From assembly GCF_027482425.1 (NCBI RefSeq), contig NZ_JAIXWA010000022.1:3111-67110 (forward strand): a stretch of DNA of 64,000 nt. The letters are read 5' to 3'. Below the pieces are notes generated by a model that saw only the letters and a list, made by a program, of their open reading frames with translations, was not told the DNA's origin and ran no database searches. This DNA comes from Flavobacterium sp. Its GTDB lineage: Bacteria; Bacteroidota; Bacteroidia; Flavobacteriales; Flavobacteriaceae. Position 1 is the stretch's first letter. Each line of letters begins with the position of its first letter. This document shows positions 3,062 to 28,400 of the stretch, piece after piece. A program made the position numbers and the translations under genes.

Positions 3062-3696
3062 AACTTCAAACGGTAGACTTCATCCAAATCGACGTTGGAT
3101 GTCAAATTAACATCCAAATCGGTTACATATCCTGAATTAAGTCCATAGACCCAACCATGAAGGGTCAAATCCTGCCCGTTTCGCCAAGCGGCTTGTACAA
3201 TAGACGTTTTGGCCAAATCAAAAACCTGCTCTTGCACATTGATTTCCACAAAACGATTAAACCGTTCTTCCTCATCGACAATGGCATTGAGATAGTCCTC
3301 ATGCATGCGATAAACATCTTTAATGTGGCGAATCCAATTGTCTATAATTCCAATCGATTGGTTGCCCATAGACGCTTTTATTCCTCCGCAACCGTAATGT
3401 CCACAGACCAAAATATGTTTCACTTTCAACACATTGACGGCATAATCCAAAACACTCAACATATTCATATCGGTATGCACCACCATATTGGCGATATTAC
3501 GATGAACAAATACTTCACCCGGTTTTGCCCCAATAATTTCATTGGCAGGCACCCGACTATCCGAACAACCGATCCAAAGTAAAGGCGGCTGTTGTCCTTT
3601 GGATAAATCCTTGAAGTAATCGGGATCTAAGGCTAACTGGGTTTCTACCCACTTTTTGTTGTTATCTAAAATCTTTTTATAAAAATCTTGACTCAT
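3058..3696 (-). CDS. can: Beta-class carbonic anhydrase
   Basis: GCSDSRV and HYGCGG zinc motifs, plus FVHRNIAN. Confidence 0.95.
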   Translation of the reverse strand: MSQDFYKKILDNNKKWVETQLALDPDYFKDLSKGQQPPLLWIGCSDSRVPANEIIGAKPGEVFVHRNIANMVVHTDMNMLSVLDYAVNVLKVKHILVCGHYGCGGIKASMGNQSIGIIDNWIRHIKDVYRMHEDYLNAIVDEEERFNRFVEINVQEQVFDLAKTSIVQAAWRNGQDLTLHGWVYGLNSGYVTDLDVNLTSNVDLDEVYRLKF

Positions 3697-20377: not shown

Positions 20378-21319
20378 ATGCGCGCCTACACGCTACTTTC
20401 TTTTTACCAACAAATTACAGCCACCGATTGGGGCGCTATAATCTTGCCTATTTGTGCAGGTTTGGCGGTATTGTATATGGTGTATGCGTTTTTCTTTCGC
20501 CCAAAATCAACGGCGGAGGCCCTTCCTGATCGGCCCGAATTGAATGTGGCACTAAGCAATTTCCTTTCTGCCTATTTTGCTGGAGAATGGGATGCGGTGG
20601 AATCACAAATAGAATTCGACCATTTTAAACATACGTTTTTAGACCAACCCGATGCTTGTCGCGTGGTTTTGCACAAACTTTTAGCACCGGCTTCACCCTA
20701 CCGTAACAAAGCCAATCAACCCAAATTGACGGCACTTGTCAAAGAGTGGAATTTAGATGCCTTTGTCGTGAAAGAATTATCAAGCACCAACGAATCATTG
20801 AAGCTGGAAACGTTGGAATATGCCAAAGCGATTCCCAGCCTTCAATTAAAAGATACTGTAACACAACTTGCCTTCTATAGCACAGCGGCGATGCGCATCC
20901 CCGCTTTGGTCACTTTGATTGAGTTGTGTAATTACCAACCCGAAACGTTACGCATTTACCCTCACGCTTTAACCGAAGAGGATGTGCAAAAATTGGTAGC
21001 CTTATATGGCAATCAAACCCAATGGGTCGCCGAGCAATTACCGACTTGGCTTGAGGCTACAGAACCTCAGTTTTTATGGTTTTGTTTGGCCTTGGCGCAA
21101 GAGTATAAGCTTCCGGTAGAGATGCGTACCTTGCAACAATTGGCATTTCACACACACAAGTCTCTTGGGGCCATTGCGATCCGTTTATTGGATGGATATT
21201 TGCAACCCGAATCTACAACAGGTGCTTTGCAACAATACCGAAAAAAAATGGTCTTAGAACAACCCTTGCCCGAAGCTCCCACTGCGAATGAAAATTCGTT
21301 TCAACAAGCAATCAATTAA
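20378..21319 (+). CDS. Membrane-anchored helical (HEAT-like) hypothetical protein
   Basis: An N-terminal TM helix followed by Leu-rich amphipathic helical repeats. Confidence 0.6.
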   Translation: MRAYTLLSFYQQITATDWGAIILPICAGLAVLYMVYAFFFRPKSTAEALPDRPELNVALSNFLSAYFAGEWDAVESQIEFDHFKHTFLDQPDACRVVLHKLLAPASPYRNKANQPKLTALVKEWNLDAFVVKELSSTNESLKLETLEYAKAIPSLQLKDTVTQLAFYSTAAMRIPALVTLIELCNYQPETLRIYPHALTEEDVQKLVALYGNQTQWVAEQLPTWLEATEPQFLWFCLALAQEYKLPVEMRTLQQLAFHTHKSLGAIAIRLLDGYLQPESTTGALQQYRKKMVLEQPLPEAPTANENSFQQAIN

Positions 21320-21380: not shown

Positions 21381-21992
21381 ATGAATTTCCTCGCCCACAT
21401 TTACCTTTCTGGCGCCTCCGATTTATTGCGGATTGGAAATTTTATGGCCGACAGTGTGCGGGGATCACAATACAAAAATCTTCCCCAAGAGTTGCAAAAA
21501 GGAATTCTTTTGCACCGCTTCATAGATAGTTTTACCGATACACATCCGTTGTACCGCCAAAGCAAGCATCGACTACATGCAAAGTACGGACACTATTCGG
21601 GGGTAATTATGGATATTTTTTACGATCATTTTTTAGCAAAAAACTGGGAACGTTACTCGGCCACTTCACTCGAAGAATATGCTGCCGATTTCTATGTCTT
21701 ACTTAAAGAAAAACACAGTTGGCTCACCGAAAAAGCACAACATATGGTGCCTTACATGATAGCTCGAAACTGGTTGGTAAGTTATGCTTCATTAGAAGGC
21801 TTAGAGAAAATTTTATTTCAAATGGACCGCCGCACCCTACAACGTGTGCAAATGCATGAAGCTATAATCGAATTGAAACAGTTTTATACCGAGTTTGAAA
21901 ACGAATTTTTTGCTTTTTTCGACGAATTGGAACTCGCCTGTCGGGAAAAACGAGAAACCTTAAACCAACAATTTAACCATGCCTCCGCTTGA
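21381..21992 (+). CDS. acpH: Acyl carrier protein phosphodiesterase (AcpH family)
   Basis: MNFLAH, GNFMADSVRG, GILLHRFIDSFTD and DIFYDHFLA. Confidence 0.9.
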   Translation: MNFLAHIYLSGASDLLRIGNFMADSVRGSQYKNLPQELQKGILLHRFIDSFTDTHPLYRQSKHRLHAKYGHYSGVIMDIFYDHFLAKNWERYSATSLEEYAADFYVLLKEKHSWLTEKAQHMVPYMIARNWLVSYASLEGLEKILFQMDRRTLQRVQMHEAIIELKQFYTEFENEFFAFFDELELACREKRETLNQQFNHASA

Positions 21993-22647
21993 CGAATTGG
22001 TGCACCTATTTAAACAGTACCAAAACCCAGAAAACGCCCTATCTATGAAGGCGTATATGAAAGACCATTTTGAATTCTTAGGGATCAAAGCCACCCCACG
22101 CAGAGACTTGTTTAACCGATGGTATGAAAAAAACAAAGAATCCATTCAAAATAATTTCCGCAGCTATACAGTAGCACTTTTTGAGCAACCCTATCGGGAA
22201 TTGCACTATTGTGGGATGGAACTTTTTTATAAAGCGGTGAAAAAAAAGTACCTCCCCGAAGACATATACCTTATTGAACATTTGATTGTGACCCATTCTT
22301 GGTGGGATACAGTTGACTTTATCGCCAAATATTTGTTGGGTGGGTATTTAAAACAATTTCCCGAAGTCATACCGTCGGTAATCGAACGGATATCGGCGGC
22401 TCCATCGCTTTGGTTAAACCGCAGTGGCCTCCTTTTTCAATTGGGATACAAAACCCAAACGGATTTTGACCTGCTAAAAGCCGAATGTTTCAAACACAAA
22501 GATTCCAAAGAATTCTTTATCCAAAAAGCGATTGGTTGGGCACTGCGTGATTACAGTCGTTTCAATCCAAACGGCGTAAGTGATTTTGTAGAAAATACCG
22601 ATTTAAAACCCTTAAGCAAACGCGAAGCCTTACGAAACTTACCGTAA
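21979..22647 (+). CDS. DNA alkylation repair protein (AlkD-like)
   Basis: MKAYMKDHFEFLGIK, SWWDTVD, WLNRSG and EFFIQKAIGWALRD. Confidence 0.88.
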   Translation: MPPLDELVHLFKQYQNPENALSMKAYMKDHFEFLGIKATPRRDLFNRWYEKNKESIQNNFRSYTVALFEQPYRELHYCGMELFYKAVKKKYLPEDIYLIEHLIVTHSWWDTVDFIAKYLLGGYLKQFPEVIPSVIERISAAPSLWLNRSGLLFQLGYKTQTDFDLLKAECFKHKDSKEFFIQKAIGWALRDYSRFNPNGVSDFVENTDLKPLSKREALRNLP

Positions 22648-23196
22648 CTCCATCGCACCCAAACGGTACTGATAGGTTTGTTGTTGGTTGGCGCCAAACT
22701 GTTGGGGGAGTAATTGAAAATAGACCACCTGCGTAAGCACACATTCCCAAGTACGTTCGTTTTGTATACAATTAATCGTGAAGCCACTCTTCCAACTGCG
22801 GTAGGTTACCGTTTTGTATTTCACAAGTGCTGATACTGTTATTTGTATTGGATCGGATTGTGCCAATTTTTGAAGCAATTTCGCAATTGGAATAAGTGTT
22901 GGCGTAGGTGAAGTAAGGTCTACTACCAAGGTTTCTTCATTTACAAATAAAGCCAAACAGGCGGTTTCCATTTCGTTGCGCAACGATGGGTCGAGTCCAG
23001 GTTGTGTGAGCTGCTGCAGGTAAAAAAACAATTCTTGGATTTTTACATCCGAATTCTCTTGATAGGCTTGCAAAACCGGCGCTGCAAAAACCTGTTGCAA
23101 CGATTGTTCGTTGGTGGTTTTCATAGATTCTGTAGCGGCCTGACTCCACACCGAAGCACTCCATAGAAAAACGATACCTACTAACCATCTGCGCAT
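22639..23196 (-). CDS. Exported hypothetical protein
   Basis: Sec signal MRRWLVGIVFLWSASVWS-Q; starts 2 nt after the 23199..24122 stop. Confidence 0.7.
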   Translation of the reverse strand: MRRWLVGIVFLWSASVWSQAATESMKTTNEQSLQQVFAAPVLQAYQENSDVKIQELFFYLQQLTQPGLDPSLRNEMETACLALFVNEETLVVDLTSPTPTLIPIAKLLQKLAQSDPIQITVSALVKYKTVTYRSWKSGFTINCIQNERTWECVLTQVVYFQLLPQQFGANQQQTYQYRLGAMELR

Positions 23197-23198
23197 AG

Positions 23199-24122
23199 TT
23201 ATTCTTGTTTGATACGGATTGCTTTGAGCCTTCCGTCGGGTTCATTTTTTATATCTACAATCTCCCACCGTTTTAGTACGGGCGTGGGAATAGTAAGCTT
23301 TTGAACAAATTGGGGTTTATTGTAAAACTCCGTCCCCAATCCGTCTTTCAACATCACCATCACTTGCAACTCATCGGAAAGAATGTGTTGCAATTGTATC
23401 TTTCGTTTTTGCCAATCGGTAATATCGGCTTTCAAAAAGGCTTTCACCATCATGGCGTAATCGTCGGGTTGCAACGTTATTACGGGCGGTGTTTGAACCG
23501 AGGAACTTGGGGGAATTTGCACGATGGTATCTTTATAAAATGGACTTTTCACTAACACCTTTAGAGGCTTTTCTCTCACTTTTGCCTCAAATTGTTGTGG
23601 AGTCATCGGTTTGACCGCAGTGGTATTGGTCGCATCAAAGACTTGAACTTCTGTACTGTCCACGGTTTCTTGGGTATATTGATTTTGCAATTTTACAGGA
23701 GGCATTTTCGTTACTTTTTTTTCTGGCCAAAGATAATAGGCTACCGCCAACAGCAAGAATCCTATCCCTATTCCCCAGAAATATCCTCGTTTTGAACGAT
23801 TCGTTACTTCTTTTGAAACTACTGTTGTGTTCGTTGCGAGGGGTTCAAAAATAAATTCATCCCAACTCGACACGCCCACAAAACGACACAACACATGGAG
23901 CATGTTTTTTCGGGGCAACTTCGTATTTGTCTCGGGTTTCAAATGAGTATAAATCCACTTTTCGCTCACCGTTTCCTTGCATTCCTTTTCCAATAAAGCA
24001 ATCAGATTCAAAATATCCTGCGATGAAAAGGTTTTCCAGTCCCCTTGAAAATACGGATAATCCTGACGGTAGCGCTCAAGCACTCGTCGTTTCAATTCCT
24101 GAAAATGTTGCATTTCATTCAT
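23199..24122 (-). CDS. Putative membrane-anchored regulator: N-terminal HTH-like domain, one TM helix, periplasmic domain
   Basis: N-terminal ETVSEKWIYTHLK...LPRKNMLHVLCRFVGVSSWDEF, TM segment YFWGIGIGFLLLAVAYYLW and a C-terminal soluble region of about 170 aa. Confidence 0.65.
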   Translation of the reverse strand: MNEMQHFQELKRRVLERYRQDYPYFQGDWKTFSSQDILNLIALLEKECKETVSEKWIYTHLKPETNTKLPRKNMLHVLCRFVGVSSWDEFIFEPLATNTTVVSKEVTNRSKRGYFWGIGIGFLLLAVAYYLWPEKKVTKMPPVKLQNQYTQETVDSTEVQVFDATNTTAVKPMTPQQFEAKVREKPLKVLVKSPFYKDTIVQIPPSSSVQTPPVITLQPDDYAMMVKAFLKADITDWQKRKIQLQHILSDELQVMVMLKDGLGTEFYNKPQFVQKLTIPTPVLKRWEIVDIKNEPDGRLKAIRIKQE

Positions 24123-24167
24123 GCCGCGGTTCAAAGGTAGGAGAACAATGAAAATTGCTGTAGAAAT

Positions 24168-24211
24168 TTCACTGTAAATTCACTGTAAAAATAACCAAAT
24201 AACTTTACAGT
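24168..24211. promoter_or_regulatory. Candidate operator: tandem TTCACTGTAAA plus an inverted TTTACAGT
   Basis: 11-bp direct repeats at 24168-24178 and 24179-24189, with an inverted half-site at 24204-24211 in the divergent intergenic region. Confidence 0.5.
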
Positions 24212-24289
24212 AAAGAGAAAGTCGATTTGCTAAAGGTTGGAAATCCGGCCCACTACTTTTGGGTCATCAAATTTTAAAAATCAAATCAC

Positions 24290-25309
24290 ATGAACACAAA
24301 AGTAATTTTAGCAGCAGCCCTATGCACCACTTTATGGGCCACCGCACAACATTCAGGCAATGCGAATTATAACGAAGCATCGGGCAATGCCAACTACGAA
24401 CTTCAAAAAGGTAATGTCAATTACGGCAATAATTCGTATTCGGTCAATAGGGTCAATACCTTACAAACCACGTCGAGTACCGAAAATGAGATGGTAATAG
24501 TCATTAAAGGAATTTACAACGAAAAAGCGACCACACAAGTCGCCACCTTTAGCGTATTACAATTGGGAAAATCGGCCGAAGAAGCCACCAATTTAATGGA
24601 TGAACGCATCAACAATGTCATCAAAGAATTGGATGCGTATAGTAAAGATATTGTAGTGATGACCGACATGATTTCGTTTGTCCCCACGTATGAATATGCG
24701 GTAGAGAAAAAAATCTTCAATCCCAAAACCTACAATGAGAAACCCTCGGGCTTTGAGTTGAAAAAGAACCTCATCATTCGCTTTCGCACCAGTCGCGATA
24801 TGGATAAAATCATTTCTATTTGCGGTAAAAATGAAATTTACGATTTGGCCAAAGTCGATTATGTCACGGTCAATTTTGATCAAATTCGCGCCCAAATGCA
24901 GCGCAAAGCCTTGGAACAATTCAAAGAAATGACGGCCAACTATTCATTATTGATGAACATGGACTTGAGTAAAAAAGAAAAAATATTGCAAGAAGGTTTC
25001 AACGTGTCATACCCCATGGAAAGTTACCGCAAATACACGGCTTATGCCCAAGCTTCGGCCAATTTTGACCCAAAAAGTTCAGTAAACGATATTAAGAAAA
25101 ACAGCACCGAATACTACAATCCCGCACTCATGAAAGACCACAGTTTTGTGATCAATGGCGATATTGCCGAACCTTCTATTCAGGCTTTTTACGATTTGAC
25201 CGTTCGTATCAAACTCAAAGAAGACCAACTACCGAAAAACACCATTATTCGCAACAACCGCTATTACATTGTGACACCAGCGGGTGATATTAAATTATTG
25301 AATTTATAA
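24290..25309 (+). CDS. SIMPL (DUF541) domain exported protein
   Basis: Signal peptide and SIMPL-type layout (A-E-A--L-DERIN, GFELKKNLIIRF, IYDLAKVDY). TACTTTTG promoter motif at 24254-24261. Confidence 0.72.
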   Translation: MNTKVILAAALCTTLWATAQHSGNANYNEASGNANYELQKGNVNYGNNSYSVNRVNTLQTTSSTENEMVIVIKGIYNEKATTQVATFSVLQLGKSAEEATNLMDERINNVIKELDAYSKDIVVMTDMISFVPTYEYAVEKKIFNPKTYNEKPSGFELKKNLIIRFRTSRDMDKIISICGKNEIYDLAKVDYVTVNFDQIRAQMQRKALEQFKEMTANYSLLMNMDLSKKEKILQEGFNVSYPMESYRKYTAYAQASANFDPKSSVNDIKKNSTEYYNPALMKDHSFVINGDIAEPSIQAFYDLTVRIKLKEDQLPKNTIIRNNRYYIVTPAGDIKLLNL

Positions 25310-25315
25310 GAAGTA

Positions 25316-25822
25316 ATGATGAAAGTATTTTTTGCATGTATTCTTTTCTCCCTCCAGAGTTGGAGCCAGGCATCGGGTTCAAGCGCATTTTCCTTTACCC
25401 TATTGTTTGATTGGAAATTTCCCGTAGAAAAGATCAAAATGTATGTGTATGAGAAAAATGGTAATTACATCGAAAATGTCCATTGTATGACGGATAAAGA
25501 AACCAATTCCATCACCGTTACAGGTGGAAACCATTACATTGTAGGGGTTAAATTTCCCTCCTTGGTATGCGTTTATGAAGGGGTGGTTTATCGTAGCGAT
25601 ACGGTTCTAGAAAAAAACACACTATTTTACCTCATCACCAACGGCATGGAATCACTTTCGCTTGAGGAACCTTTGTTTTTTTCAGATAAAAATAAAATTA
25701 TCGAAGTCAAAAGAAGACTGAAAGGCGAATCATTTCAAACAGAAATCCTCAAACATGACGATTTGCAATTTCTCCCCATGTCAAGTGTCCATATTTCAAC
25801 AGAAATGGTACGATTAAACTAA
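25316..25822 (+). CDS. Exported hypothetical protein
   Basis: Signal peptide MMKVFFACILFSLQSWS-Q, 6 nt downstream of the SIMPL gene; beta-rich sequence. Confidence 0.62.
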   Translation: MMKVFFACILFSLQSWSQASGSSAFSFTLLFDWKFPVEKIKMYVYEKNGNYIENVHCMTDKETNSITVTGGNHYIVGVKFPSLVCVYEGVVYRSDTVLEKNTLFYLITNGMESLSLEEPLFFSDKNKIIEVKRRLKGESFQTEILKHDDLQFLPMSSVHISTEMVRLN

Positions 25823-25824
25823 AC

Positions 25825-25853
25825 AAAAGGGAGCTACGGTTCCCTTTTTTTTT
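25825..25853 (+). terminator. Intrinsic terminator
   Basis: AAAA-GGGAGC-TACG-GTTCCC-T9. Confidence 0.85.
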
Positions 25854-25895
25854 GTTCCCAACGAAAAAGAATACCTTTGCAGTTCAACAAAAACT

Positions 25896-27878: not shown

Positions 27879-28400
27879 CTACTTCGTCTTCTCCCCTACA
27901 AAATAATCACTCTGACTTTTGAATAATACATTAAACGTAGTCAAACTGCCATAAATGCGGGTGATGTATTGTTGCAATTCTACTTTTTCAGCATCGTCGA
28001 GGGTACTCGCATTAATTTTTTGTTCCATGACCCGCAGGCGATCGCGTACCATGACAATTTTATGAAAAAAGGTATCGATAGGCACCTCTTTATTTTGAGT
28101 GGGCGTTCCGGGTTCCATGATTAGCTTCCCACCTTTCCATTTGTCGGCAATCGCAACCGCCGGTGTCAAGTCGCTCCAACGTTGCAACAAATTCTTCATC
28201 ACTTTCTCCACCTCATAAAAACTCACCGTATCCACTTCACCATCAATCGCTTCAATCACTTCTACGGTCGAATCTAAGTCGATGGTTTCCAAGCCGCTCT
28301 CGATAAACGTTACCCAATAATGTTTGGTCGTGACATTGGTGACTACGCCCAAACCGTGCTCGGGATGCTTGATACGGGAACCGATACCTAATAATTTCAT
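27879..28400 (-). CDS. Hypothetical cytoplasmic protein (SH3-like N-terminus, helical C-terminus)
   Basis: 173-aa ORF with an ATG start; GSRIKHPEHGLGVV N-terminus and FFHKIVMVRDRLRVMEQKIN helix. Confidence 0.8.
   Translation of the reverse strand: MKLLGIGSRIKHPEHGLGVVTNVTTKHYWVTFIESGLETIDLDSTVEVIEAIDGEVDTVSFYEVEKVMKNLLQRWSDLTPAVAIADKWKGGKLIMEPGTPTQNKEVPIDTFFHKIVMVRDRLRVMEQKINASTLDDAEKVELQQYITRIYGSLTTFNVLFKSQSDYFVGEKTK

Follow-up and report, generated by a model that had tools for sequence, protein, structure and literature searches.

Does a small divergent locus of Flavobacterium sp. (NCBI RefSeq assembly GCF_027482425.1) encode a membrane-bound gene switch, and, if so, from which parts is that switch built? 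The locus lies on contig NZ_JAIXWA010000022.1, in a stretch of 64,000 nucleotides (positions 3,111 to 67,110 of the forward strand; hereafter the window, whose own numbering is used throughout). Its minus strand encodes a membrane protein (REG) and, beginning 2 nt past the REG stop, a coupled secreted protein (PARTNER), while its plus strand encodes a secreted SIMPL/DUF541 protein (SIMPL) and a further secreted protein (ORF4), closed by a terminator-like hairpin and T run. An initial annotation of the window had described these four open reading frames (ORFs), the spacing between the minus-strand genes, the terminator and a 167-nt intergenic region with phased repeats, all of which we recovered, and had read them as an envelope-sensing regulator analogous but not homologous to ToxR and CadC, with an XRE-like DNA-binding domain. 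The overall layout, the linkage to SIMPL, the operator-like repeats and the non-homology to ToxR/CadC withstood closer analysis, whereas the XRE-like character could not be established. As judged from sequence, REG, PARTNER and SIMPL look like a previously uncharacterised three-gene module resembling a membrane-bound gene switch, and we consider it rather probable that REG is a ToxR/VtrA-like "co-component" transmembrane transcription regulator made of non-homologous domains.

REG belongs to a sizeable family. A large protein database holds 696 homologues, which form 457 clusters at 50% identity and are nearly all ~300 aa long, and relatives are encoded in at least 569 Bacteroidota species genomes. 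The best named homologue is 87% identical, and the Flavobacterium of the window is close to F. fontis; the cultivable strain F. fontis DSM 25660 carries this locus too (L015), with a REG that is 87% identical. Conservation was counted over 80 loci fetched out of the at least 569 genome loci encoding a REG relative, with genera including Flavobacterium, Pedobacter, Chryseobacterium, Epilithonimonas, and Apibacter. Searches by tblastn detected SIMPL, divergent from REG, at 77 of these 80 loci and PARTNER at 68, while an ORF with a signal-peptide-like N-terminus was found downstream of REG at 76. All but two of these 76 partner ORFs directly adjoin REG, either with an annotated start no more than 4 nt from the REG stop or with an overlap of 25–47 nt into the REG 3′ end. 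Gene order and the tight coupling of REG and PARTNER are thus conserved across distant genera, as is the linkage to a divergent SIMPL gene claimed initially, and the genes flanking the module differ between loci. The proposed four-gene system is accordingly reduced by one member: REG, PARTNER, and the divergent SIMPL gene are co-conserved and constitute the module, whereas ORF4 was found at only 7 of the 80 loci, in close relatives only, and is a lineage-specific addition outside the conserved system. The distribution of the module is patchy, with representatives in 6 of 301 sampled Bacteroidota genomes and 3 of 142 genera. Two SIMPL subtypes occur within it, each matching PF04402, and SIMPL is preceded at some loci by a second SIMPL gene or by a gene for a small secreted protein.

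The intergenic region between REG and SIMPL depends on where REG begins. The ORF list places the start at a TTG codon (24134, giving 23199..24134), but an alignment with 24 homologues favours the ATG at 24122 (MNEMQ...), and with this start the intergenic region is exactly 167 nt (24123–24289). Within it, two direct CTGTAAA repeats and one inverted copy form a candidate operator, flanked by a candidate −7 box for each of the divergent transcripts (Table 1). Across 81 loci (the 80 fetched and the window), at least two exact copies of CTGTAAA stand upstream of REG in 72, and their spacing is 11 bp in 73 of 74 pairs. An exact TTTACAG is present at 61 loci, in 58 of which it lies 20–21 bp past the last direct repeat. 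As background, the heptamer occurs 0.29 times per kb. In Bacteroidota, the −7 promoter consensus is TAnnTTTG. Among 76 distinct loci anchored on the last direct repeat, a TAnn[TA]TTG box occurs at +71/+72 on the SIMPL side in 61, and its reverse complement at −51/−52 or −40/−41 on the REG side in 65, so that the operator-like layout is kept at fixed distance from both promoter boxes. The REG box of the window stands so close to the start codon that a near-leaderless REG mRNA is predicted. Transcription would be expected to start near 24267 on the plus strand and near 24125 on the minus strand.

These repeats are also exclusively associated with REG. The CTGTAAA-N4-CTGTAAA pair has a single exact occurrence in the 2.6-Mb genome. 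We further examined 61 related genomes, among which all three Flavobacterium genomes with REG hold exactly one repeat pair each, located no more than 60 bp from REG. In the other genomes of this set, repeat-pair matches appear at the rate of a reversed-pattern control and several fall inside ORFs; none of those in genomes without REG stands beside a REG or SIMPL homologue, and we regard them as background. Where extra genes precede SIMPL or another protein replaces it, the repeats stay upstream of REG. Even homologues at 26–28% identity keep related TGTAAA/TTTACA motifs upstream, one in the form of TTTACAAG repeated twice at 11-bp spacing and another as a TTTGTAAAA-CTG-TTTTACAAA palindrome. 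By sequence comparison, which gives the strongest result of this analysis, the intergenic repeats form an operator-like element that is highly conserved and linked to REG, and are more than a product of chance.

Other identities for the element were considered and set aside. An SOS box has a layout different from the one seen here, in which CTGT...ACAG halves stand 20–21 bp apart with direct repeats alongside, and we therefore rejected LexA as the cognate protein. A search for riboswitches and small RNAs in the intergenic region returned no Rfam family near threshold. A wider regulon was likewise rejected, since the genome contains no second exact repeat pair; the sole other near-match to the tandem repeat is CTGGAAATGCGCTGTAAA, with 1 mismatch, outside the window (G000:C59:17224-17241).

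Several loci differ from the window in the genes around the repeats. At two Flavobacterium loci (L045:3476-4837 and L055:3471-4826), the divergent output is a secreted VWA-domain protein of 451–453 aa in place of SIMPL, with the CTGTAAA architecture upstream of REG retained. Small secreted proteins of 146–202 aa without a Pfam family are encoded between the operator and SIMPL at five loci (L032:1797-2405, L054:4245-4847, L062:4275-4844, L081:4287-4844, and L031:4397-4837); a YxCISCG motif is common to four of them, and none is similar to ORF4 of the window. Among distant REG homologues, some of 389–398 aa carry an acidic, proline-rich linker of ~80 aa between the N-terminal domain and the transmembrane helix (at L012:5048-6211 on the minus strand in genome G058, as well as in G042 and G326). 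In G058, where the palindrome mentioned above lies upstream, a 112-aa lipoprotein rich in Ala, Asp, and Lys takes the place of SIMPL as divergent neighbour.

What kind of protein could read such an element? REG was described initially as a cytoplasmic domain of ~90 aa, one transmembrane helix, and a periplasmic domain, and this layout is borne out both by the sequence and by an AlphaFold2 (AF2) model, which show an N-terminal domain, a hydrophobic helix, and a folded C-terminal region, with an N-in orientation predicted. The full-length model (mean predicted local distance difference test score, pLDDT, of 78.5) contains an N-terminal helical domain, the transmembrane helix, a beta-rich stretch, and an alpha+beta domain. 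The LCRFVGVSSWDEF motif marks the end of the confidently modelled helical domain of ~95 aa (hereafter the N-domain), which, when modelled alone, forms five helices with a pLDDT of 90 and a predicted template modelling score (pTM) of 0.81. This domain is the only cytoplasmic one in the module and its most conserved part, with a mean column identity of 68%; among its invariant residues are S-E-K..Y...K, in helix 3, and P-R, ahead of helix 4.

Comparison of the N-domain with known structures points towards helix-turn-helix (HTH) proteins, at scores short of significance. Of its 28 Foldseek neighbours in the PDB, 19 are HTH DNA-binding proteins, including TP901-1 CI, EspR, DdrO, ClgR, Stl, PrgX, and other XRE proteins, all of them weak matches (best E = 0.46, template modelling (TM) scores of 0.38–0.46), and most of the named matches in the viral library BFVD are HTH, XRE, or CI repressors (E ≥ 0.7). 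When the N-domain was aligned by hhalign with 30 HTH_3 domains from related genomes, the SEKW.Y.HLK helix fell on the recognition helix, with P = 0.086. Profile searches found no family for REG in Pfam (E ≤ 1) or NCBIfam and no match of the N-domain to PDB sequence profiles. With 27 N-domains searched against Pfam at E ≤ 10, only noise was returned, the commonest hit being Myb_DNA-bind_6 (4 members, best E = 0.007). For residues 1–95, the confident five-helix model and the mostly XRE/CI neighbours therefore speak for the XRE-like HTH that had been claimed, whereas the missing HTH_3 profile match and the absence of any significant sequence or structure match to HTH domains speak against it: an HTH-like nature is plausible but unproven at the level of the model, and XRE family membership is not supported.

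The periplasmic region of REG was modelled with a pLDDT of 70–90. Foldseek searches with the whole protein were dominated by the C-terminal domain, which matched SnoaL, NTF2-like, and ketosteroid-isomerase folds in the PDB (E of 5e-3 to 0.2, probability up to 1.0, target-normalised TM scores of 0.4–0.5). An NTF2-like assignment from the model is suggestive rather than firm, and such a fold would suggest a small hydrophobic ligand or a protein contact as the signal.

PARTNER is the least conserved protein of the module (mean column identity 34%). It had no match among Pfam, NCBIfam, and PDB sequence profiles, and a relationship as a paralogue of the REG periplasmic domain was rejected, as hhalign shows no similarity to the REG C-terminus. 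The contrast between 68% identity in the N-domain and 34% in PARTNER fits a conserved DNA-contacting output combined with a fast-evolving sensor. ORF4 likewise belongs to no family in Pfam, NCBIfam, or PDB sequence profiles. SIMPL is the one protein of the locus with a firm family assignment: as had been annotated, it is a SIMPL/DUF541 protein, matching PF04402 over residues 84–261 with E = 1.1e-11 and 45.8 bits against a curated gathering score of 25.2; it has no match to PDB sequences. The function of bacterial SIMPL proteins is poorly defined. Behind its signal peptide, SIMPL carries three short GNANY/GNVNY-type repeats (SGNANYNEASGNANYELQKGNVNYGNNSY; window 24350–24440), and similar G/N/Y-rich stretches occur in orthologues.

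How does the module compare with characterised systems? Transmembrane regulators with overlapping periplasmic partner genes are established (PMC9214523, PMC10269533), and VtrA/VtrC, ToxR/ToxS, TcpP/TcpH, and PsaE/PsaF have been grouped as "co-component" transmembrane transcription regulators, whose partner genes overlap and whose periplasmic parts evolve fast (Kinch et al. 2022, PMC9214523). Like VtrA and ToxR, REG combines an N-terminal, putatively DNA-binding cytoplasmic domain (given the predicted N-in topology) with a single membrane-spanning helix and a domain in the periplasm; the gene directly downstream, often overlapping, encodes a small partner that is secreted or periplasmic; the periplasmic parts evolve fast; and the proposed control is of adjacent genes for exported proteins. 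Unlike them, REG has no OmpR-type winged helix (Trans_reg_C), as there is no Pfam match and the N-domain model is all-helical without a wing, its periplasmic domain looks NTF2-like rather than VtrA/ToxR-like, PARTNER has no relation detectable by sequence to the lipocalin-like VtrC/ToxS, and its hosts belong to the Bacteroidota rather than to the enteric Proteobacteria. On present evidence, REG stands outside the VtrA/ToxR superfamily, in agreement with the non-homology initially claimed.

Two further families resemble parts of REG. With XRE/Cro-C1 repressors such as TP901-1 CI, DdrO, and ClgR, its top though non-significant Foldseek neighbours, the N-domain shares a five-helix bundle of similar size; it differs in its longer helices 1 and 2 and a 10-residue loop after helix 3, while REG is membrane-anchored and its candidate operator consists of direct repeats and one inverted copy instead of a simple palindrome. 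RodZ, with an XRE-type HTH, a transmembrane helix, and a periplasmic domain, shares the overall topology and a helical, HTH-like cytoplasmic domain. However, REG has no HTH_25 or DUF4115 match, its module is patchily distributed where RodZ is a near-universal cytoskeletal factor, and the module comes with a cis-element of its own and a divergent operon. On the output side, SIMPL matches the same PF04402 family as Brucella BP26 and E. coli YggE above the curated cut-off, and differs from both in its extra N-terminal GNANY-type repeat region and C-terminal extension. BP26 self-assembles into a barrel-like particle (PMC12915080). We found no paper that links SIMPL/DUF541 proteins to such a regulator in Bacteroidota, and no description of this system in the literature.

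Taken together, we propose that REG may act as a membrane-anchored one-component regulator that forms a "co-component" sensor with its translationally coupled periplasmic PARTNER. The five-helix N-domain would sit in the cytoplasm and bind, between the divergent promoters, both the phased CTGTAAA copies and the inverted TTTACAG, and this binding would control the SIMPL operon and probably the operon of REG itself. The NTF2-like periplasmic domain and PARTNER would together respond to a signal from the envelope or from outside the cell. DNA binding by the N-domain, the interaction of REG with PARTNER, envelope sensing, and the regulation of SIMPL are all inferred here from layout and conservation. 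As to the direction of control, our guess is activation rather than repression, on two grounds: each −7 box stands downstream of the sites, with no overlap, and a −33 TTTG at canonical spacing is missing from the SIMPL promoter, where the closest TTTG is 24 nt from the −7 box. The chances seem to us evenly balanced that REG founds an unrecognised family of Bacteroidota transmembrane regulators, in which a highly diverged HTH-like domain invisible to domain-based censuses, an NTF2-like periplasmic sensor, and a dedicated periplasmic co-sensor would switch on SIMPL through phased CTGTAAA repeats when an envelope cue arrives; the co-component logic of ToxR/VtrA would then have been invented independently.

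Several observations weigh against a DNA-binding regulator. The N-domain has no significant similarity to any DNA-binding family in Pfam, NCBIfam, or PDB sequence searches or by hhalign (P = 0.086), all of its Foldseek matches have E ≥ 0.46 and TM scores ≤ 0.5, and a count from the sequence finds it roughly charge-neutral. The usual binding sites of XRE-type proteins are palindromes rather than direct repeats at 11-bp spacing, and RodZ shows that an HTH–transmembrane–periplasmic layout need not mean a transcription factor. Lysines are found on both sides of the REG transmembrane helix, so that the positive-inside rule favours neither orientation. REG and PARTNER could instead be envelope proteins working physically with SIMPL, in its assembly or anchoring or as a scaffold comparable to RodZ or the bitopic VirB8-type proteins; REG would then not bind DNA, and the repeats would serve an unlinked transcription factor. 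Such a role would suit an N-domain that matches no DNA-binding family significantly, bitopic proteins with a periplasmic NTF2-like domain are also found among structural proteins, and divergent gene pairs may share function rather than regulation. Yet the repeat pair is single in the genome and tracks the presence and absence of REG, and any unlinked factor would therefore need an equally patchy distribution. The repeats also remain with REG when the output becomes a VWA protein, and the N-domain, whose closest folds are HTH repressors, is the most conserved part of REG, matching a near-invariant DNA motif. We consider this explanation unlikely, while giving it real weight.

Alternatively, REG could resemble an anti-sigma factor or anti-activator, with a cytoplasmic domain that sequesters a soluble sigma or transcription factor recognising the repeats and frees it upon a periplasmic signal. 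Anti-sigma factors typically have a single-pass, N-in layout with a sensor in the periplasm, and one REG homologue (P0084) is labelled 'Anti-sigma factor' in its source database. However, no sigma or regulator gene conservedly adjoins the module, whose flanks vary between genomes; at the window locus specifically, no ECF sigma gene stands beside the module, and neither a sigma factor nor another regulator is encoded among the flanking genes. In addition, REG contains no anti-sigma domain by Pfam (no zf-HC2, RskA, or FecR match), and the promoter boxes resemble the housekeeping TAnnTTTG rather than the ECF type, all of which makes this arrangement distinctly improbable. It is harder still to credit that the repeats are a promoter-associated sequence kept by descent or chance, to which no regulatory protein binds. 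The compared loci are homologous, and some conservation is therefore expected from shared ancestry, but the exact heptamers, their 11-bp spacing, and the box offsets are kept at loci whose proteins and remaining intergenic sequence have drifted apart to 42–48% identity, against the low background of the heptamer. A co-component regulator thus remains the reading we prefer.

If REG does bind the repeats, the transmembrane and co-component regulators would gain a DNA-binding domain family and a sensor pair, both of them new, and the co-component layout would have arisen outside enteric Proteobacteria from unrelated parts. Surveys that start from known DNA-binding domains (PMC10269533) would miss REG because it has no Pfam domain. 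Binding would also provide a simple handle on bacterial SIMPL/DUF541 proteins, and a system with a single dedicated regulator, operator, and output operon would open the inducing signal to a promoter-reporter screen. Being compact and near-invariant, the operator and promoter (~130 bp) could furthermore serve as a regulatory part for Flavobacterium genetics.

Table 1 Features of the divergent REG–SIMPL locus, in window coordinates
Feature	Coordinates	Strand	Description
REG	23199..24122	-	307 aa, single-pass membrane protein; candidate transmembrane transcription regulator
REG N-terminal cytoplasmic domain	23841..24122	-	~95 aa, five helices; candidate HTH-like DNA-binding domain
REG transmembrane helix	23727..23783	-	YFWGIGIGFLLLAVAYYLW; hydrophobic segment in the sequence, helix 118-134 in the AF2 model
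REG periplasmic region	23202..23726	-	beta-rich linker, then alpha+beta domain; candidate sensor
PARTNER	22639..23196	-	185 aa, secreted, signal-peptide-like N-terminus; candidate periplasmic co-sensor
Two direct CTGTAAA repeats	24172-24178, 24183-24189	+	11 bp start to start; candidate operator
Inverted copy	24204..24210	-	reads TTTACAG on the plus strand; 21 bp past the second direct repeat
Candidate -7 box for REG	24132..24139	-	TACCTTTG (minus strand); 9 nt upstream of ATG
Candidate -7 box for the SIMPL operon	24254..24261	+	TACTTTTG; 28 nt upstream of ATG
SIMPL/DUF541 gene	24290..25309	+	339 aa, secreted; candidate regulated output
ORF4	25316..25822	+	168 aa, secreted, signal-peptide-like N-terminus; lineage-specific second gene of the output operon
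Intrinsic-terminator-like hairpin and T run	25825..25858 (hairpin 25825-25848)	+	10-bp stem with 4 GC pairs; ends the SIMPL-ORF4 operon

In the window, the module is flanked by genes for an ACP phosphodiesterase (ACP_PD), a DNA alkylation repair enzyme (DNA_alkylation), and a ClC channel (Voltage_CLC). The 3′ end of PARTNER (stop at 22639–22641, minus strand) overlaps the convergent DNA alkylation repair gene (21979–22647, plus strand) by 9 nt (22639–22647), and there is no terminator between these two 3′ ends. Two nearby ORFs have no Pfam family, at 20378–21319 (plus strand, 313 aa) and 27879–28400 (minus strand, 173 aa), the former being kept in close relatives only.

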